The notes beneath the pieces were generated by a model, which saw nothing but the letters and a program-made list of their open reading frames with translations, did no database searches and was not told the DNA's origin. Shown here one piece after another: positions 5,949-47,605 of a DNA stretch of 64,000 bases. The position numbers and the translations under genes were made by a program. The stretch lies in the NCBI GenBank assembly GCA_028702395.1, contig JAQVOV010000001.1:3990-67989 (forward strand), in the 5' to 3' direction. Numbering within the stretch: the first letter of the stretch is position 1; each line of letters starts with the position of its first letter. This stretch comes from Candidatus Omnitrophota bacterium. Lineage in GTDB: Bacteria; Omnitrophota; Gorgyraeia; JABMRN01.

Positions 5949-6437
5949 GCCTTTCCACACCGTATAACTTTTCATGACGATCCTCCGCACAATAGATTTG
6001 ATATGGCTTAGAAGTCAGAGGTCAGAAGGGGCAGTTATCATTAAAAACACTGCTTATGAAAAAGATCCCTCGTAAGCGAAACACAGGTGTTTCGTAATTA
6101 CTCGGGATTGATTAAAGAACTTTTTTTATTCAAAAAAGCCTATTATTCAAAGAGGTGATCCCTCGGAAGGAAAAAGCAGTGCTTTTCCCATCTCCTAGGG
6201 ATTAATTAAAGAACTTTTTTATTAAAAAAAGTTCTTCTTAATTAAAAAAACAAGTGATACAATAAAACCATAGAAGGTTTCCCTGCTGTGTTCGCGATCG
6301 AGGTTTTGATATTTTAGCCTATACTAAAATATTGGGAGCCTAACTCTAGCGTTCTCGAGGGATCGTTAGGAGGGCACCCCCCTTAATCTAAAGGGACTAT
6401 AATATTTGATCTCTAACGGCATAAGCAGGGTTTTTTA

Positions 6438-9155: not shown

Positions 9156-9383
9156 ATGGTGAAAAAATATGTAAGCCCCACAATGAAAGCAGTCGAACTT
9201 GAACCAAAGCAAGCAATAATACAAGTTTGTGTAATTGGCGGAGTATATATGAGAAATGTTCCTCTTGCCCCTATTTGTTTTCCGGCAGGAACAGACATGA
9301 CAGGAATATGTTCTGTTTCAGTAAAAGGACAAGAAACAGGGAGCGTATCTCTTTCCCCTGTTGGTGAACTGCCAGGATCATAA
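9156..9383 (+). CDS. Small Cys-containing peptide, paralog P1 of a 7-member family (leader-peptide precursor-like)
   Basis: AAGGAG SD 8 nt upstream. N-terminus MVKKYVSPTMKAVELEPKQAIIQVCVIGG matches the family consensus. Two core Cys, VKGQ motif, C-terminus ...PGS. Confidence 0.5.
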   Translation: MVKKYVSPTMKAVELEPKQAIIQVCVIGGVYMRNVPLAPICFPAGTDMTGICSVSVKGQETGSVSLSPVGELPGS

Positions 9384-21502: not shown

Positions 21503-21520
21503 AGAAGACGGATAGCACTC

Positions 21521-22045
21521 TTAAGATAAAAGAATAAAGATAAAAGATAAAAGGGTGGAATGTCCTGAGAGAAGTTTTGTAGGGGCGTATTGCAATACGC
21601 CCCTACTATCCAAAGTTTTCAGGAAGATCCTTAATCTCGTAGCCCGCTGCGCGTGGCGCGAAGCAGGTTTCCAATGAAGCTTTTGTAAATGAAAAAGACG
21701 TTCGAAGAAGAGAAAAGTATTTCAAGACAACTAAAGGAAAAAGAACGTTACGGTTAATGTTAAAAGAGACCTTAGAGAAGACGAATATCTCTCTCTTAAG
21801 ATAAAAGAATAAAGATAAAAGATAAAAGGGTGGAACGTCCCGAGAGAAGTTTTGTAGGGGCGTATTGCAATACGCCCCTACTATCCAAAGATTTCAGGAA
21901 GATCCTTAATCTCGTAGCCCGCTGCGCGTGGCGCGAAGCAGGTTTCCAATGAAGCTTTTGTAAATGAAAAAGACGTTCGAAGAAGAGAAAAGTATTTCAA
22001 GACAACTAAAGGAAAAAGAACGTTACGGTTAATGTTAAAAGAGAC
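21521..22045. repeat. Tandem duplication of a ~275-bp composite repeat unit (K-module + 30-bp palindrome + GC arm + ~100-bp tail)
   Basis: Two near-identical copies, 21521..21772 and 21797..22044, each containing gtaggggcgtattgcaatacgcccctac. Confidence 0.85.
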
Positions 22046-22149: not shown

Positions 22150-22223
22150 TGCCCGATGGTGTAATGGTAGCACAGGTGATTCTGGTTCATCTAGTCTAGG
22201 TTCGAGTCCTAGTTGGGCAACCA
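22150..22223 (+). tRNA. tRNA-Gln (anticodon CTG), ends CCA
   Basis: Acceptor stem TGCCCGA/TTGGGCA (one G-U). D-arm TGTAATGGTAGCACA. Anticodon stem GGTGA/TCATC with loop TTCTGGT. T-arm CTAGG-TTCGAGT-CCTAG. Discriminator A followed by CCA. Confidence 0.7.
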
Positions 22224-22382: not shown

Positions 22383-22631
22383 ATGACAAGAAAAAATAAA
22401 AAATATTTTAGACCTAAAGTGAAGTGTATACCATTATCTCAAGAGCAAGCTACTTTACAAGTCTGTCGTATTGGAGGAGCTTATTTTGGTTTTACAGATG
22501 CATTTCCAAGCTGGTGTTTTGGTGTTGGCACAACTCAACCAAGAGTATATGAGTGCGATGTAACGGTTAAAGGGCAATCTTTTGCTACTGATAGGGGGAA
22601 TCCAAATTCAGCGGATACGCAGCCTTCCTAA
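22383..22631 (+). CDS. Small Cys-containing peptide, paralog P2 (leader-peptide precursor-like)
   Basis: ...KVKCIPLSQEQATLQVCRIGGAYF... matches the family consensus. WC and EC core Cys, VTVKGQ motif, C-terminus ...QPS. Lies ~160 bp downstream of tRNA-Gln. Confidence 0.5.
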   Translation: MTRKNKKYFRPKVKCIPLSQEQATLQVCRIGGAYFGFTDAFPSWCFGVGTTQPRVYECDVTVKGQSFATDRGNPNSADTQPS

Positions 22632-39184: not shown

Positions 39185-39430
39185 CTAGCTTGGTGCTGCT
39201 GATTGAGCAAGATCTCCTCCAATCATCCTCATAGGGGAGTTACCCCCTGCTGCGCCTTTTGGAGTAAGTTGACATTCCATAGCAGGTGTTCCTGTTATAT
39301 TACCACAGAAGTTTACTCTCAGTGTTGTCTGATAGTATAAATATAGACCTCCAATTGCACAAATTGCTAAGATGGATTGTTCTGGGTGAAGTTGTATTGC
39401 TTTTATTTTCGGCTGTATATATTTTCTCAT
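39185..39430 (-). CDS. Small Cys-containing peptide, paralog P3 (leader-peptide precursor-like)
   Basis: MRKYIQPKIKAIQLHPEQSILAICAIGGLY... matches the family consensus. FC and EC core Cys, TPKG motif, C-terminus ...APS. Tandem with P4. Confidence 0.5.
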   Translation of the reverse strand: MRKYIQPKIKAIQLHPEQSILAICAIGGLYLYYQTTLRVNFCGNITGTPAMECQLTPKGAAGGNSPMRMIGGDLAQSAAPS

Positions 39431-39583
39431 TTTTCCTAACTTTCTAAATATTAAGTGTAGCATTTTTTACTTAGCAATGCAAGAAGAAAGGGATAATTTA
39501 AAAAGAAACTTATTAAGTATCATTATATTGTATAGAACCTTTTGATACTTGTCAATTAAAAATGAAATGTAATATAGAGGGGT

Positions 39584-39814
39584 TTAGCTTGGTGGCATGC
39601 TATTGGAGACAGACGTCATCATATCCATGTTTACATTTATTCCGTCTCCACCTTTTGGGGTAAAATTGCAAAGAGGACCATCTCCCGAAAACTGTCCACA
39701 CCAAGCAGAGATGGATCTGCTTACATACAAACCACCAACCTTACAAACTTGTAGAAGTGCTTGTTTTTGGTCAAGTTCAATAGAGTTTATTTTTGGCGCT
39801 GTGTATTGTTTCAT
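39584..39814 (-). CDS. Small Cys-containing peptide, paralog P4 (leader-peptide precursor-like)
   Basis: MKQYTAPKINSIELDQKQALLQVCKVGGLY... matches the family consensus. WC and LC core Cys, TPKG motif, C-terminus ...PPS. Confidence 0.5.
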   Translation of the reverse strand: MKQYTAPKINSIELDQKQALLQVCKVGGLYVSRSISAWCGQFSGDGPLCNFTPKGGDGINVNMDMMTSVSNSMPPS

Positions 39815-40150
39815 AAATAAAGTATATCAGGAGGCAAGTAAAAAGGCAAAAGGAAAAAGCAAAAAATAGTTTAACTAGTTGTTACTTGGCAAAGCGCATA
39901 TCGCGAATCGCATATCGTAAAGGGTGGGGATTTTTGCCACGAGCTGCGCGCTGCGCGCAACGCGCTAGTTGAACGTACTGAATAGGGATGAGATGCGTGT
40001 TAGAGACCAGAGACAAGAAGCAAGAGAACTATATATACGGCTTATCTTTAAATCAATTAATACTGGTCACTGGTCACTGGTCACTGGTCACTGGTCACTG
40101 GTCATTTGTTTCATATGGACTCATTGTTCCTGTTAAGCTATAATGAACCT

Positions 40151-42040: not shown

Positions 42041-42429
42041 GGGGGTGTCCGGAATCGACTTAGACATTACAGGCTTTAAGTTGCATGTAGCGGATGTCAG
42101 TTGGCCGCTTAAAATAACTGGCAAAAACACAAACGCAAAATACGATTCAGTAGCCGAAGCAGAAGCAATTCTAGCTGAGGATGCGTTACAAGTTCCTCAA
42201 TTTGAAGGAACTGGTTCTCTAGTAAGCGCTTTGGCTTATTAATAGGACTTAATCTAACAAAGACGATTAATAGTGTTGCTGTAGCATTGTTGATCGAAAG
42301 ATTACAGCTGCTTGTACATATATCCTGTTTGCCGGAGATATGTGCAAAAAGACAAATAACAAACTAAACATGTAGATACTTTTAGTTTGATGTCCGAGGA
42401 CCGGGGTTCGAGTCCCCGCACCTCCACCA
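42041..42429 (+). ncRNA. ssrA: tmRNA (ssrA), ~389 nt
   Basis: 5' GGGGGUGUCCGGAAUCGAC pairs with the 3' end ...CACCUCC-A-CCA, including the G3:U70 Ala identity pair. 3' T-arm GGACCGGGGUUCGAGUCCCCG matches tmRNA. Internal reading frame ends ...SALAY with double stop UAA-UAG (42240..42245). smpB is present at 3093. Confidence 0.85.
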
Positions 42430-42502
42430 TATTGCATTAAAAAGAGAAGCAAACGCTTCTCTCTTTTTGTTTATGATCATTTATCGAACAAACGGGGCGA
42501 AA

Positions 42503-42685
42503 AATATAATTTCCACAATACAAAAACGAGGTCTGTCCCTAGTTCTAGTTAAACTCAATAGTGGACAGACCTCGTTTTTATAGCTTGCCTCGGGACACAC
42601 ATAGGAGAGTAATTTAACCATTGGTTATGTGTGTCCCGAGAACTCTGGGTTACCTGAGAACCTGATCCTATAGAACCAGGTTCTC
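42503..42685 (+). repeat. Three-hairpin structured repeat, copy A (upstream of P5)
   Basis: Hairpins gaggtctgtcc...ggacagacctc, ctcgggacacacata...tatgtgtgtcccgag, gagaacctg...caggttctc. ~90% identical to the copy at 43594..43790. Confidence 0.8.
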
Positions 42686-42858
42686 CATAGCTAAAACAGA
42701 GGAAAAGCCACAAGGCAAAAAAGAAAAAGTGACAAATTTAAGACCTGAACCTATGGAACCAAGTTCTTGACACCATGGTGTCTGCCCAAAAGTTGCCCAT
42801 TTAAATTCAAAACAATAAAAAACTTGAGAGAGTGTGTAGTTTATGGTATATTTATTTT

Positions 42859-43065
42859 ATGAAAAAATATATTAAGCCAAGAATAAACGCCATAGACCTT
42901 GATCCTGATCAGGCGATCCTTGCGGTGTGTCAAGTTGCCGGCGCTTATTTTTTGTTTAATGGATGTTTTAGTTCTGGAACCGGTGTTGCATGTCCCTCGG
43001 AGATCAGAGGAGTTGCCAATCAAGTAGATGTTTTAGGCAGAACAAACGATGCTATCCCTTCATAA
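42859..43065 (+). CDS. Small Cys-containing peptide, paralog P5 (leader-peptide precursor-like)
   Basis: MKKYIKPRINAIDLDPDQAILAVCQVAGAYF... matches the family consensus. GC and AC core Cys, C-terminus ...IPS. The ATG at 42859 is preferred over the upstream GTG. Confidence 0.55.
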   Translation: MKKYIKPRINAIDLDPDQAILAVCQVAGAYFLFNGCFSSGTGVACPSEIRGVANQVDVLGRTNDAIPS

Positions 43066-43319
43066 TCAATCGCTTTATATACAGCATCTCTTGTAACACC
43101 GCCCATCCCTACAGTAACCTGTTTGAACCTTGGTTTTTGGAATCAAATTTTTTAGATTTTAAGAATATCGGACTAAGTTAATTCTCTGCCCATTTAAAGT
43201 CAAAATAGTTAAAATAAGGAAAAAAATTTCAAAACAGAATAAAACATAAACCTTTTTGTTTTATCACCATTTCATTTAACCAAATTTGCTTTTAAAAAAA
43301 GATATGATATACTTAAAGC

Positions 43320-43547
43320 ATGAAAAAATATCAAAGCATGAAAATAAAGAAAGTAAAGCTTAATTCTGACCAGGCAATAATGCAAGTGTGTGCTATCGCG
43401 GGTTCAGGATGGTACTTTAATCCAGGTCCTGTACAATGGTGCAATGCAGGTACAACTGATAATATTGGAGCATTCTGTACAAGTGGAGTAAAAGGAAATC
43501 AGACATATTCGAGAGGACCGGGTCAACAACATACAATACCAAGTTAA
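43320..43547 (+). CDS. Small Cys-containing peptide, paralog P6 (leader-peptide precursor-like)
   Basis: MKKYQSMKIKKVKLNSDQAIMQVCAIAGSGWYF... matches the family consensus. WC and FC core Cys, VKGNQ motif, C-terminus ...IPS. Confidence 0.55.
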   Translation: MKKYQSMKIKKVKLNSDQAIMQVCAIAGSGWYFNPGPVQWCNAGTTDNIGAFCTSGVKGNQTYSRGPGQQHTIPS

Positions 43548-43593
43548 ATTCTTTTAAGAAATTCTAAACTTCCAATTGCAGGCGAAAATCTTG

Positions 43594-43790
43594 AAATATA
43601 ATTTCCACAATACAAAAACGAGGTCTGTCCCTAGTTCTAGTTAAACTCAGCAGTGGATAGACCTCGTTTTATAGCTTGTCTCGGGACACACATAGGGGAG
43701 AATTTTAAACATTGGTTATGTGTGTCCCGAGAACTCTGGGTTACCTGAGAACCTGGTCCTATAGAACCAGGTTCTCAGGTTTTTTCTTTT
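43594..43790 (+). repeat. Three-hairpin structured repeat, copy B (between P6 and the radical SAM gene), ending in a terminator-like T-run
   Basis: Same three hairpins as copy A. Stem 1 carries a C-to-T change that keeps pairing only as a G-U wobble (RNA-level). Hairpin 3 is followed by ggttttttctttt. Confidence 0.8.
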
Positions 43791-43865
43791 CATGAAAAAC
43801 GCGAAAATAAAGAATTTATTGCAAAGGCTATACGTGCATGGTATAATCCAAAATAGAGGTGAACT

Positions 43866-45434
43866 ATGCTAATTGCATCAAAAAAACGACACAGAATGAG
43901 ACTTGTTATTCCTGCTTTTCCTGCATTTAATATTTATTCGTATTCGTCACAACGTACAACTGCACTTGGACCGGTTTGCATTGCTACAACAGTCAATCAA
44001 ATGGAAAACTGGGACGCTGAAGTCATTGATGAGAATAATCTTCGTTTATATGGACCTAAAAGTAAGACAGGTGGTGCAGACCATGAGTTTTTACACGTTA
44101 TCAGACCTGCTGATATTGTTGGATTTTATGGGGGATTGACAAGTACCATTCCCAGACTTTATGAACTTGCAAAGTTTTACAAGAAAAGAGGAGTTATTAC
44201 TATTGCAGGAGGACAACACTTTGTTGGTGAGAATATAAAAGAAGCTTTGTATTCTGATATTGATTATGTTGTTATAGGTGAAGGAGAGGAAACGATCAGA
44301 GAACTTATAGAAGGGTTAGAAGGAAAAAGAAACATAGATGAAATAAAAGGTATTGCGTACATAAAAAATGGAAACATTATTCAGACTCCAACAAGAGAAC
44401 CTATAACTGACTTTGAGAAATTACCTTTACCTGATTTTTCATTGGTCAGGTATGCTAGAATAGAAAATTATCCGGTTGAAAGAATAAGAGGATGCGGAAT
44501 GAACTGCGAGTTCTGTACTGTCAAAGGAAGTCCAAGATGTGCCTCTGTTGAAAGATTATTTGAGAGGATAAGTTTTTTGGTTGAAACAAGAGCAGCCAAA
44601 AGATTTTTCATCATAGATGATCTTTTTGGACAGCAAAGAGAAGAAACTATAAGGTTCTGTTATATGCTTCGTGATTATCAGAAAAGGATACACAAAAGAT
44701 TGGATGTGGGTGTTCAGATAAGATTAGATAAGGCTAAGGATACAGAGATGCTTTCTGCAATGCGCCAGGCAGGTATTAACTTTGTAGCTATTGGTTTTGA
44801 ATCTCCTATCAGGGAAGAGTTAAAAGCAATGAACAAACATCTGAACCCTGAAGAAATGATAGCACTCACAAGTATTTTTAGAAAATTCGGATTTCTTATA
44901 CATGGTATGTTCATTTTTGGATATCCTGTTCAAGAAGGGGTTAATTTCAAAATGCCTATAAAGGAACGTATTAAACAGTATAAGGATTTTATCAGAAAAT
45001 GTAAGATAGACACAATACAGATCCTGTTACCAGGGCCTTTGCCTGGTACTGAATTCAGAGAAAGACTTAAAAAGAAAAACAGGCTGTATCCTCTTAAAGA
45101 TATTGGCTGGGAATATTATGACGGAAGTTTTCCGCTTTTTGAACCTGACGAACCTTTGACTGCTGAAGAACTTCAAAAAGCACAAAAAGAGATCATGGGA
45201 AATTTTTACCAATTCAAATACATGTTCATGATAGCATTTAACATTTTCTCTTTTCCCTCAATAATATTTTTTTTAAATAACATCAAAGTTGGCTGGAGAC
45301 GGTGGTATAGACCATGGCGAAATGATCTTGTCCGTTTTGGTGGCTGGATGACTATGAGAAAATGGACAACAGAATTCAAGAAAAACACTTTTCAAGAGAA
45401 ATTGAACAAGGCCAAAGAGTGTATAAGGAAATAA
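43866..45434 (+). CDS. B12-binding (class B) radical SAM enzyme
   Basis: N-terminal cobalamin-binding Rossmann-like domain (...VGFYGG...ITIAGGQH...VVIGEGE). Radical SAM core with CGMNCEFC (CxxxCxxC). Hydrophobic C-terminal segment. Confidence 0.8.
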   Translation: MLIASKKRHRMRLVIPAFPAFNIYSYSSQRTTALGPVCIATTVNQMENWDAEVIDENNLRLYGPKSKTGGADHEFLHVIRPADIVGFYGGLTSTIPRLYELAKFYKKRGVITIAGGQHFVGENIKEALYSDIDYVVIGEGEETIRELIEGLEGKRNIDEIKGIAYIKNGNIIQTPTREPITDFEKLPLPDFSLVRYARIENYPVERIRGCGMNCEFCTVKGSPRCASVERLFERISFLVETRAAKRFFIIDDLFGQQREETIRFCYMLRDYQKRIHKRLDVGVQIRLDKAKDTEMLSAMRQAGINFVAIGFESPIREELKAMNKHLNPEEMIALTSIFRKFGFLIHGMFIFGYPVQEGVNFKMPIKERIKQYKDFIRKCKIDTIQILLPGPLPGTEFRERLKKKNRLYPLKDIGWEYYDGSFPLFEPDEPLTAEELQKAQKEIMGNFYQFKYMFMIAFNIFSFPSIIFFLNNIKVGWRRWYRPWRNDLVRFGGWMTMRKWTTEFKKNTFQEKLNKAKECIRK

Positions 45435-45579
45435 AATTCCTTATCTGCTAAAAAAATTTTATATATTATCCTCCCGTTAGAAGCCTTTGATTGACCATGA
45501 ATTGCTAATGTGCTACAATCCATTTATAAAACTATTTTGAAATCGACCAATACACTTATCTTTAAAAAAACGAGAGACT

Positions 45580-46515
45580 ATGACAAAAAAAATAATATTA
45601 TGCATTATCTTTAGTTTATATGCTGCCAATTGTTTTTCCATAGAATATGATGTGAATGAATTGTTAGGCTCCTTATATAAACAAGCCCAAACAGCTATAG
45701 AAAAAGGTGATCAAGGTGAGTCGGATTTCTTTTTAGCAAGGTACTTGGGATTAGTTACAACAGAAAATACCACTAAAAACTATACTGACCTTTATCCTTT
45801 ATTTGACACACATAAGCAGTTAAATGCTTTTACTGTTATTAACGGAGAATTCCAAAAAGAATTTATAGATTGGTTCATATTCGCAGGATATTCTATGTGG
45901 GCAGGACAAACTATTATACAAACAAAAGATGGCGCTTTAGAGGTTACCAATAATTTGAATGATAATTTCTATGTAGGGGTATTTGGGTATCCTTACTTGG
46001 AAAAAGGGAGTATTGTAGGAGGAACATCTAATAGCGGTGAAGTTGTTGTTATGACTTTAATGAGAAAACCTTTTTTAGTTTTAGGAAAGATCAAGGAGAA
46101 AGAGAATCCTTTGGATAATGCAAGCGATTTTCCAATAGAAGTAAGAACAGTCATACAATATATATGGCAGCCGGAATTCTATGATATTGATAAAGATGGG
46201 GAAGATGAAATTTTTATCAGATACAATAAATCTTGGGCTACAGGATTTTCGCAAGTATTGGATATTTATAAAATAAAAGAAGATGACTTGATCTTATGGG
46301 AGAGATTTGAGGGGTTAGCAGAAGGGATAGCTATGAGGGCAGGAGATAAAATTATTGTAGGAGAAGGTTTTTCTGATACAGGTAATGGCCATATGGGTTA
46401 TGAAAAAACACACATTGAAGAATTTGAATATAAAGAGGATAAATGGATAAGGACTAAAGCGTCTGATCAACCGCATATATTATTAAATGAAGAATGGAAA
46501 ACCTTTTATTTGTAG
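45580..46515 (+). CDS. Secreted hypothetical protein (signal peptide; no recognisable domain)
   Basis: MTKKIILCIIFSLYAANCFS signal. Lies between the rSAM gene and paralog P7. Confidence 0.4.
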   Translation: MTKKIILCIIFSLYAANCFSIEYDVNELLGSLYKQAQTAIEKGDQGESDFFLARYLGLVTTENTTKNYTDLYPLFDTHKQLNAFTVINGEFQKEFIDWFIFAGYSMWAGQTIIQTKDGALEVTNNLNDNFYVGVFGYPYLEKGSIVGGTSNSGEVVVMTLMRKPFLVLGKIKEKENPLDNASDFPIEVRTVIQYIWQPEFYDIDKDGEDEIFIRYNKSWATGFSQVLDIYKIKEDDLILWERFEGLAEGIAMRAGDKIIVGEGFSDTGNGHMGYEKTHIEEFEYKEDKWIRTKASDQPHILLNEEWKTFYL

Positions 46516-46647
46516 CTAAAAATTGTCTCTTTTTTATTCTTTTGACTATGGATAAAGGGATTCTAAGATTCCCAAAGATTTATTTTATAGATAAGAATGT
46601 TTTTTTACAAGTAGAAATTTTGTGAAAATAATATACAATATATACGT

Positions 46648-46869
46648 ATGAAAAAGTACATTATCCCAAAAATAAGAGCAATTAAACTTGATCAAAAACA
46701 AGCTGTATTAGAAGTTTGTCAACTTGCAGGAGCTTATTTTGTATCAGCAGGACCGCCTTCGGATTGGTGTATGCGTTCAGGTGCAGGCGTTAATTGCGTT
46801 ATAAGCGTAAAAGGCCAGGCAAACCCCGTAGAAATAGCTTGGACACAAAGAGGCGCTCAACCTTCATAA
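46648..46869 (+). CDS. Small Cys-containing peptide, paralog P7 (leader-peptide precursor-like)
   Basis: MKKYIIPKIRAIKLDQKQAVLEVCQLAGAYF... matches the family consensus. WC and NC core Cys, ISVKGQ motif, C-terminus ...QPS. Confidence 0.55.
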   Translation: MKKYIIPKIRAIKLDQKQAVLEVCQLAGAYFVSAGPPSDWCMRSGAGVNCVISVKGQANPVEIAWTQRGAQPS

Positions 46870-47049
46870 AACAATCCAGAGTAGCAACTTCACCTTCATC
46901 ACTTTGGGACCACTTCTATACGTAAACTCGGACCACTTCTACACAGACTGCGGACCAGGTCTAATCTGTAAAAATAAGTTATGGCGATATGAATTGACTC
47001 TCCCTATATGTATAGTATAATAATATAATACACAACTTGAGGAGAAAAA

Positions 47050-47370
47050 ATGGTTTTTTCGGAAAAACTAAAAAAACAGTTTAAGGATCTTATTTCAAGT
47101 CGTAGTGGTCTTTATTTCAAAGACTATGACCTACAAACTTTAGAAAAAACAGTTGTTCTTAGAACACAACAGCGTAGATGCGAGTCTTTCGAAGAGTACT
47201 ATTCATACTTGATTGCTTCCAAAGAAAAAGAATCTGAATTTCGAGAAATAATCAATCTTTTAACTATACAGCATACATGTTTCTTCAGAAATGAACCGCA
47301 ATTTAAAGTTCTAAAAGAAAAAGTTCTTCCAGAGATATTATTAGATACGATCGAAAGGTTGATAGGGTAA
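47050..47370 (+). CDS. CheR N-terminal (all-alpha) domain-only protein; likely a remnant of a chemotaxis methyltransferase
   Basis: HTCFFRNEPQFKVLKEKVLPEI resembles the CheR N-domain. Only 106 aa, with no SAM-MTase domain. An IR element follows immediately. Confidence 0.4.
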   Translation: MVFSEKLKKQFKDLISSRSGLYFKDYDLQTLEKTVVLRTQQRRCESFEEYYSYLIASKEKESEFREIINLLTIQHTCFFRNEPQFKVLKEKVLPEILLDTIERLIG

Positions 47371-47374
47371 CAAG

Positions 47375-47605
47375 GAGTTTGAGACTAGAGACCAGAAACC
47401 AGCGGCCAGAAACCAGGGACCAGAGATAATTGATTTAAAGATAAAAGATAAAAGATACAAAGAAACAAAGATACAAAGGTTTTAAAAGATATAAAAAGTT
47501 AATAGGAGGTTATGATTAGAGTCTAGGATAAATGTTTTAAAGAATACCGGTTACAAACCGTCCTGGTTTCTGGTACATGGTCACTGATTTCTAAATGCTA
47601 TAAAG
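47375..47605. repeat. Type-A IR element (GACCAGA-type arms) upstream of a response-regulator gene
   Basis: gagactagagaccagaaaccagcggccagaaaccagggaccagag...ttgatttaaagataaaagataaaagatac...cctggtttctggtacatggtcactgatttctaaatgctataaaggagataaatATG. Confidence 0.8.

Follow-up and report, generated by a model that had tools for sequence, protein, structure and literature searches.

What does a strongly folded intergenic sequence do when it occurs twice around a pair of small peptide genes? The 64-kb stretch of DNA analysed here (the window), from a Candidatus Omnitrophota bacterium, carries two copies of an element in which a leader is followed by three hairpins (H1, H2 and H3). The copies flank P5 and P6, two genes for Cys-containing peptides that lie between the transfer-messenger RNA (tmRNA) gene and a gene for a B12-binding radical S-adenosylmethionine (rSAM) protein. 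An earlier note on this DNA had taken the element to be a cis-regulatory RNA, processing site or small RNA (sRNA) specific to the locus. We lean, with confidence somewhat better than even, towards another answer, namely that the element is an undescribed, modular palindromic intergenic repeat of the BOX/BIME kind, which has been locally duplicated and acts as terminator and insulator. Under this reading it is no regulator dedicated to P5/P6-rSAM; it belongs to a small hairpin-repeat family of this Omnitrophota lineage, the modules of which are recombined or amplified, and the two copies in the window would go back to a recent local duplication or be a gene-converted pair.

The two copies flanking P5 and P6 are real, and they are more alike than the ~90% identity first reported. 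Repeat search and alignment place them as direct repeats on the plus strand (as are all window features below unless stated otherwise), copy A at 42502-42685 and copy B at 43594-43776, each ~184 nt long, starting AAATATAATTTCCACAATACAAAAACGAGG and sharing the leader AAATATAATTTCCACAATAC. Over 184 nt they differ by eight substitutions and one 1-nt indel, which corresponds to ~95% identity, and the repeat search breaks their match at the indel into two segments, one of 77 nt (96% identity) and one of 110 nt (95%). Upstream of the copies, a weak likeness (GGCGAAAA) goes on for ~8 nt across a 6-nt indel. A third copy in the window was found neither by mismatch searches nor by word-7 blastn nor by a covariance model of H2 run with filters off. 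Three Logan contigs (assemblies of public runs) from the same organism are substrings of the window, one of them with a single-base difference; they stop within stretches that are identical between A and B (L020 spans 42635-43623, L001 spans 43748-47509), and through them P5 is linked to the H3 variant of copy A and the rSAM gene to that of copy B. Because copy-specific variants are thereby linked to unique flanks, the duplication is no assembly artefact. Protein-cluster look-ups for more of the genome yielded nothing beyond Logan contigs of this organism and very short ones from relatives.

Each copy consists of three consecutive strong hairpins, as had been described. The RNA minimum free energies of copies A and B are -76.7 and -87.5 kcal/mol, compared with -45 and -48 for shuffled sequences (z-scores -7.2 and -9.0), and 0 of 200 dinucleotide shuffles folded as well. 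H1 forms 16-20 bp in the two copies (42519-42582 in copy A, an inverted repeat with 20-nt arms that are 95% complementary; 43611-43670 in copy B, with one G·U pair and a T4 tail). In both of them, and in a third copy on another contig (L017, described below), the H1 stem stands between an A-tract and a T-tract and is followed by T4-T6; its 24-nt loop exceeds the limits of the terminator scanner. With A5 before its stem and T5 after it, H1 of copy A looks like a bidirectional terminator, a likeness that extends to H1 of the other two copies. H2 pairs perfectly around a 22-nt loop, over 15 bp in copy A (42589-42640) and 16 bp in copy B (43679-43732), and the covariance model R1 scores the two inverted repeats at 88.8 and 88.3 bits.

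The third hairpin sets the copies apart. Intrinsic terminators are G+C-rich stem-loops placed directly before a T-run on the transcribed strand, and H3 of copy B (43743-43780) has this form, with 15 perfect bp (eight of them G-C), an 8-nt loop and TTTTTTCTTTT directly after, which carries copy B with its complete H3 and T-run to 43790. The terminator scan ranks this site first, as the strongest call of the region, and both the T-run after copy B and its terminator-like character, noticed previously, are therefore borne out. H3 of copy A (42656-42685) and H2 of either copy lack these features. In copy A the repeat ends within the 3' arm of H3: ACCT is kept on the 5' side, its AGGT partner (the outer 4 bp) and the T-run are missing, and the remaining 11 bp include one A·C mismatch (arms 87% complementary) and fold at -13.1 kcal/mol on the plus strand versus -27.4 for copy B. 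Judged by these sequences, copy A looks like a truncated derivative of a copy-B-like element, and the sharp boundary within its H3 points to DNA-level copying from a source of that type. A degenerate, H3-like relic, AGACCTGAACCTATGGAACCAAGTTCTT, was read from the sequence at 42742-42769 (~75% likeness by eye, without statistics); it is missing from L019, a contig of a close relative, in which it corresponds to a 36-nt alignment gap.

Are these hairpins maintained, or merely inherited? The earlier observation that stems are kept while loops differ holds: six of the nine differences between A and B (substitutions or edge changes) fall in the 54 loop nt (Fisher p = 0.02). Comparison with the L017 element revealed three compensatory pair changes across copies that keep pairing (C-G to A-U and G-C to C-G in H1, A-U to C-G in H2). 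With only 3-5 sequences available, shuffle controls of covariation were non-significant (58/500 and 99/500), and the covariation evidence for the stems is suggestive only. Missing covariation among further homologs had been named earlier as grounds for refutation, and on this point the evidence falls cleanly on neither side. Taken at the sequence level, the data support hairpins that are themselves maintained while their loops drift. Stems that are kept around loops free to vary argue for a generic hairpin role, such as terminator, exonuclease block or DNA hairpin, and not for an RNA with a specific binding function.

These observations also bear on the simplest alternative, in which the element is a neutral leftover of a segmental duplication, without function, in intergenic DNA that is prone to repeats. 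The cut within H3 of copy A and its missing T-run would be expected of such a remnant, the A/B divergence of 4-5% is like the non-coding divergence from L019, and covariation does not reach significance. However, substitutions avoid the stems at the p-value given above, the three double compensatory changes have preserved perfect pairing across ~15% divergence, and H3 of copy B is placed exactly as a terminator between two promoter-driven units. We consider neutral decay very improbable.

Does selection act on RNA rather than on DNA? The earlier note had answered in favour of RNA, based on one stem position that differs between the copies. This C/T difference in H1 exists, with a G-C pair in copy A that is G·U in copy B; a second stem difference had been overlooked. 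In the 5' arm of H3, copy B has G and copy A has A, which gives A·C on the plus strand and G·U on the minus strand only. Counted over all copies, there are two plus-strand G·U pairs (H1 of copy B; H2 in unit 3 of L017) versus one or two on the minus strand. RNA folding of the plus versus the minus strand yielded -73.9 vs -85.0 kcal/mol for copy A, -84.7 vs -85.3 for copy B and -132.7 vs -132.5 for the L017 array; there is no strand signal in the folding. The argument for RNA-level selection is not supported, since the H1 G·U pair of copy B is offset by the H3 A·C of copy A and the plus strand has no energy advantage.

The tmRNA gene (ssrA, 42041-42429; identified by ARAGORN and, at full length with 171 bits, by Rfam RF00023) lies directly upstream of copy A and has an intrinsic terminator of its own at 42443-42462 (42443-42472 for the 8-bp stem together with CTTTTTGTTT), called by the terminator scan; copy A starts 40 nt past position 42462 and 73 nt past the tmRNA 3' end. 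The promoter scan called a P5 promoter at 42824-42852 (TTGAGA, 17-nt spacer, TATATT, TG before the -10 box), followed by the P5 open reading frame (ORF; 42859-43065, 68 aa, MDD4201883). For P6 (43320-43547, 75 aa, MDD4201884), a probable promoter was read from the sequence at 43285-43313 (TTTGCT, 17-nt spacer, extended -10 box TGaTATACT); the scan did not call it, its -35 box having 3/6 matches, and the same box occurs as a direct repeat before P5. The P6 ATG is located 6 nt downstream of the probable -10 box. Copy B begins 47 nt beyond the P6 stop codon, and downstream of it the rSAM gene (43866-45434, MDD4201885), which has a ribosome-binding site before its ATG, is preceded by a promoter at 43819-43847 (TTGCAA, 17-nt spacer, TATAAT, TG before the -10 box; 10/12 matches in the scan).

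A separate observation concerns how the peptide genes are started. Upstream of P5, P6 and a related peptide gene at 46648 (42824-42859, 43285-43320 and 46620-46648), there is no Shine-Dalgarno sequence, and 6 nt separate the ATG from the end of an extended -10 box (TGnTATATT or TGnTATACT). With the -10 box at this distance, the peptide mRNAs are probably leaderless, starting at the A of the start codon.

A riboregulator serving P5/P6-rSAM, be it a structured cis-regulatory RNA, a processing site or an sRNA under plus-strand RNA selection, possibly in the form of a leaky attenuator controlling how much peptide is made per enzyme, would fit several of these features. Both copies are oriented in the same way as tmRNA, P5, P6 and rSAM, two stem changes give G·U pairs on the plus strand, stems are kept while loops vary, and copy B is located between P6 and rSAM and has the features of a terminator. 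The attenuator proposed for this position is not supported, as the rSAM gene has a promoter of its own downstream of the terminator. The A·C mismatch in H3 of copy A arises on the plus strand, and this copy folds 11 kcal/mol better as the minus strand; variable loops on conserved stems are the reverse of what ligand- or protein-binding RNAs usually display; and no sigma-70-like promoter was called at the leader. The Rfam scan proposed earlier identified no family at the gathering threshold or at E <= 10 (Rfam 15), the best sub-threshold match being L20_leader with 30.2 bits versus a threshold of 58.7, and only generic hairpins were matched.

The genes around the element weaken a dedicated regulator further. 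The rSAM protein has hundreds of homologs at ~70% identity (73% at most) throughout Omnitrophota, and those examined (L014, L015, L016) sit in unrelated neighbourhoods with genes for a DEAD-box helicase, CorA, glycosyltransferases and LptFG, in which no gene annotated as a P5/P6-like peptide adjoins the homolog. As these neighbourhoods differ, the non-coding DNA there is beyond comparison. A word-indexed protein search with P6 returned only P6 itself. P5 and P6 are part of a family of seven paralogs of 68-82 aa that are scattered in the window and unclustered at rSAM, at 9156-9383, 22383-22631, 42859-43065, 43320-43547 and 46648-46869 on the plus strand and at 39185-39463 and 39584-39814 on the minus strand. 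They have in common the N-terminal motif (K/R)KYxxPK(I/V)xAIxLxxxQAxLxVCxxxG and 3-4 conserved Cys, nearly all end in PS, and no Pfam or NCBIfam family matched them. Judged by this distribution, the rSAM protein resembles a housekeeping enzyme conserved in the phylum more than a maturase dedicated to the peptides. Given that its homologs occur in unrelated neighbourhoods and that the peptide paralogs are scattered, it is doubtful that P5/P6-rSAM form an operon for a ribosomally made, post-translationally modified peptide (RiPP). Together with the separate context of the related element on L017, which runs convergent to its neighbouring gene, these points make a riboregulator of this locus improbable.

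A motif reported to precede both peptide genes was part of the same proposal. It is present: CTGCCCATTTAAANTCAAAA occurs in the window only at 42793 and 43186, where 0.09 occurrences are expected by chance, as TTGCCCATTTAAATTCAAAA upstream of P5 (42793-42812) and CTGCCCATTTAAAGTCAAAA upstream of P6 (43186-43205). Its conserved regulatory role does not follow. L019, which has ~95% DNA identity and holds P5 and the start of P6, losing homology upstream of 42781, carries the P5-side motif unchanged, whereas the P6-side motif is disrupted there by a 15-nt insertion and three substitutions; this insertion weakens the idea of the motif as a required regulatory site.

How would a terminator and insulator work at this locus? 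By analogy with known intrinsic terminators, H1, with its A-tract, stem and T-tract, and H3 of copy B with its T-run might both terminate transcription, and the P6 (or P5-P6) transcript would then stop at copy B, ahead of the rSAM gene and its separate promoter. Long stems at the 3' end of the message might in addition block 3'-to-5' exonucleases, as REP/BIME elements do. Copy A, which stands between the tmRNA terminator and the P5 promoter, would be at most a back-up insulator against read-through from tmRNA and may be functionless. We infer the terminator, insulator and mRNA-stabiliser activities from such analogies.

Is the element confined to this locus, as had been claimed? It is not. One true relative was found in the JGI metagenomes (Ga0163203_1057396, here L003) and on a longer ENA contig (L017), another Omnitrophota contig; along 138 nt that span leader, H1 and H2, it is 84-85% identical to the copies in the window. 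Read in the orientation of the window, L017 holds tRNA-Arg, tRNA-His, a terminator, ~260 nt of other sequence, the leader, H1 and three tandem units. The leader is identical to that of the window at 22/22 nt, an identical run that is unremarkable at 15% divergence, so that special conservation of the leader was discarded. Each tandem unit comprises H2 and the 3' half of H1 (period 96, 2.9 copies, 86% matches), and H3 is missing from the array; the make-up is thus leader-H1-H2-H3 in the window and leader-H1 followed by three H2 + half-H1 units in L017. This relative, next to tRNA and HEPN genes and with another module composition, shows that the family is independent of the peptide-rSAM locus.

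The array enters the 3' end of a convergent HEPN gene, the protein of which (P0121) ends ...KAKEILSFSGHT. An ortholog with 89% identity (P0122, MDD4203313), from an NCBI Omnitrophica assembly and, given the accessions of neighbouring proteins, probably from the same metagenome-assembled genome as the window, ends ...KAKEILKLNN, and a second one (72%), on the 87-kb contig L022, ends ...EILKLKKT and has no array downstream. The last six codons of P0121 lie in the first H2 unit, and the array starts exactly at the point where P0121 diverges from P0122 and from L022. This coincidence, and an L022 ortholog without array, identify the array as an insertion or expansion and leave the element with no conserved HEPN partner. 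For the toxin-like HEPN gene itself, the array (L017 486-820) supplies the last six codons and the stop, giving ...EILSFSGHT* instead of ...EILKLNN*. ToxI-like repeats of type III toxin-antitoxin systems are tandem RNA repeats directly upstream of the toxin gene and co-transcribed with it; they were rejected here, as the L017 array lies downstream of HEPN, where it overlaps the 3' end of the gene, has its leader in the opposite orientation and is missing beside HEPN orthologs.

The L017 insertion, which replaced the last codons of a gene, speaks for mobile DNA, and the element might be a non-autonomous mobile element or recombination substrate. Its hairpins, in single-stranded or cruciform form, would be recognised by a transposase or recombinase, much as in REP/RAYT, IS200/IS605 or miniature inverted-repeat transposable elements (MITEs). 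Terminator activity would then be incidental, and RecA acting on the 184-nt repeats could delete or amplify the 1.09-kb P5-P6 segment. In favour are also the strand symmetry of the palindromes, with both arms kept by compensatory changes, the varying number of modules between copies, and the position of both loci downstream of tRNA or tmRNA genes, where mobile DNA is classically found. Assemblies break at the element, and the genome is repeat-rich, with an IS110-family transposase in the window. On the other hand, copy number is very low. Neither terminal inverted repeats (the ends, AAATATAATTTCC... and ...CCAGGTTCTC, are no inverted copies of each other) nor a target-site duplication in the flanks was present at copy A or B, and no second tmRNA 3' end marks an att site in the window. 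Among the ORFs scanned, which cover part of the window, there was no tyrosine recombinase, integrase, IntI, RAYT or TnpA, and the IS110-family enzyme was the only transposase. Plasmid and phage databases yielded no blastn match, and degenerate H1 and H2 patterns had no match in viral contigs. We regard a mobile origin as unlikely, if less so than the two alternatives discussed before.

Specific classes of mobile or structured DNA can be judged by the same evidence. MITEs are defined by terminal inverted repeats and target-site duplications, and were ruled out by the lack of both at either copy. Islands targeted to tRNA or tmRNA genes leave a direct repeat with the 3' end of the gene and carry an integrase; a tmRNA-targeted att repeat or island was rejected, with no second tmRNA 3' end in the window and no integrase among the scanned ORFs. 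Integron attC sites consist of a single imperfect hairpin bounded by R''/R' core sites (RYYYAAC ... GTTRRRY) and lie near an IntI gene; here, judged by eye, GTTAAAC occurs only in the H1 loop and the match in the H2 loop differs between copies, and attC was dismissed. Bridge RNAs of IS110 elements are structured non-coding RNAs in the non-coding end of the element, directly flanking the recombinase gene. The IS110 gene of the window (37463-38533) is 4 kb away with housekeeping genes in between, and three perfect hairpins are not the two internal-loop domains of a bridge RNA, which was likewise rejected.

Several further candidates did not hold. The leader 20-mer had nine matches in species-representative genomes, in unrelated taxa, mostly in coding DNA and without H1 downstream, which we attribute to chance; the H2 palindrome had no match in the 185,579 genomes of this collection. 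Two metagenome matches to H2 (L002, L004) proved to be a different 25-bp hairpin with the same 12-mer and are unrelated. A minus-strand ORF (MVKL...), seen in the window and in L003, is shifted in frame by the 1-nt indel in copy B, has no ribosome-binding site and has lost its ATG in one L017 unit. A TATAAT in the leader has no acceptable -35 box and was not called by the scan. A leader motif in common with another repeat family (CCACAATGAAAAC) has eight matches versus 4.2 expected, barely above chance, and the likeness of the L019 5' end to the sequence after copy B was non-significant.

Which known systems does the element resemble? A literature search found no published work about intergenic repeats of Omnitrophota. 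BOX elements of Streptococcus pneumoniae (boxA-boxB(n)-boxC) are modular intergenic repeats of hairpin-forming modules that sit between genes and can affect expression of their neighbours. Similar to boxB, the number of internal modules varies (H2 once in the window, three times in L017), and the plan of fixed terminal modules with a variable internal module is that of BOX, as an analogy of architecture with no sequence relationship. Unlike BOX, the element stems from a different phylum, has very low copy number compared with >100 per pneumococcal genome and comes with no boxA/boxC-type terminal modules shown here.

Repetitive extragenic palindromes (REP; REPIN) are short imperfect palindromes that occur tens to hundreds of times per genome and have a cognate RAYT, an IS200/IS605-like Y1 transposase. 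In Enterobacteria and Pseudomonas they form composite mosaics (BIMEs) of intergenic palindromes at gene 3' ends, are strand-symmetric and maintain their structure across copies, all of which is seen here as well, and they act as terminator-like or mRNA-stabilising 3' hairpins. The element likewise has palindromes, in two copies in 64 kb plus one related locus elsewhere. In contrast to REP/BIME, its stems are longer (15-20 bp), its loops large (22-24 nt) and without a conserved GTAG-type head, and no RAYT gene was found among the scanned ORFs. Intrinsic terminators, including bidirectional ones, are matched by H3 of copy B, with a G+C-rich 15-bp stem before a T-run, and by H1 between its A- and T-tracts, whereas H2 and H3 of copy A have no T-run and a conserved 184-nt composite of three hairpins far exceeds what a terminator needs. 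The MITE-like Correia (NEMIS) and ERIC elements are, like this one, small non-coding hairpin repeats of ~100-200 nt, and their insertion close to genes changes how transcripts are terminated and processed; unlike it, they carry terminal inverted repeats and target-site duplications (TA for Correia). By sequence the element is new to all of these, likened in function to REP/BIME/BOX and to intrinsic terminators and a sequence member of none.

Within its own genome the element has much company. Intergenic repeat families of the window include heptamer arrays (ACTAGTC, ACTGGTC), G+C-rich GCCACGAGCTGCGCGC blocks and GTAGGGGCGTATTGCAATACGCCCCTAC palindromes, and composite multi-hairpin blocks occur, for example, at 20.07, 61.09 and 62.98 kb. 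With so many of them, multi-hairpin intergenic composites are the norm for this genome, and the element studied here is a low-copy example. The heptamer arrays and their variants fill many intergenic regions (1206-1389, 36516-36741, 38833-39072, 40002-40121 and others) and recall the short tandemly repeated heptamers of filamentous cyanobacteria; several further repeat families have 5-24 copies in the 64 kb. Pairs of repeats also bracket other genes: composite repeats at 36449-36741 and 38786-39072 surround the IS110-family gene (37463-38533), and repeats at 38747-38843 and 39889-40025 surround the minus-strand pair of peptide genes (39185-39814). Both pairs are 88-95% identical and ~1.1-2.3 kb apart, and the latter has the same pattern as at P5/P6, built from different repeat families. 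Elsewhere in the window, a tandem duplication of 253 nt with 99% identity (21518-21770 and 21793-22045) lies just upstream of tRNA-Gln (22150-22223), which is followed by the peptide gene at 22383, placing peptide genes downstream of a stable-RNA gene twice in the window. A 106-aa ORF at 47050-47370 encodes only a CheR N-terminal domain and the first methyltransferase residues and is directly followed by repeat elements (47393-47604); it may be a gene truncated by repeat insertion. A 6S RNA gene was identified at 6277-6435 (Rfam RF00013, 65.5 bits).

Several facts weigh against the intergenic repeat that we favour. Only one extra locus is known, and what we call a family consists of three elements from two or three genomes. 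In the window there are just two copies, adjacent to each other, compared with 5-24 for the other families, and the element could be largely a local peculiarity. A terminator role leaves H2 unexplained, since this hairpin, which pairs most perfectly and is amplified in L017, lacks a T-run. Finally, at both loci a stable-RNA gene of like orientation precedes the leader end (tmRNA in the window, tRNA-His in L017), which is unexpected for a purely random dispersed repeat. In a more speculative interpretation, the element might be a lineage-specific, self-propagating hairpin cassette of Omnitrophota that prefers sites downstream of tRNA and tmRNA genes and has H2 as its functional unit. H2, with its 16-bp stem and semi-conserved 22-nt loop (GGRGnnTAnTTTAAnCATTGRT), could then be a processed small RNA or, alternatively, the recognition hairpin of a single-strand-DNA transposition or recombination system, and the 184-nt direct repeats might let the P5-P6 segment loop out or amplify. 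We give this scenario the same low probability as the riboregulator.

If the element is indeed a locally duplicated intergenic repeat, it would be ordinary genome furniture, a palindromic repeat with a second role as terminator, from an uncultured phylum that has received little study. It would gain greater weight only if H2 turned out to function as an RNA or to serve a mobile system as its recognition hairpin. This reading accounts for the breaks of this organism's assemblies at the element and cautions against taking P5/P6-rSAM as a RiPP operon with a dedicated riboregulator. The leader, H1 and H2 now provide a seed for cataloguing hairpin repeats across Omnitrophota.

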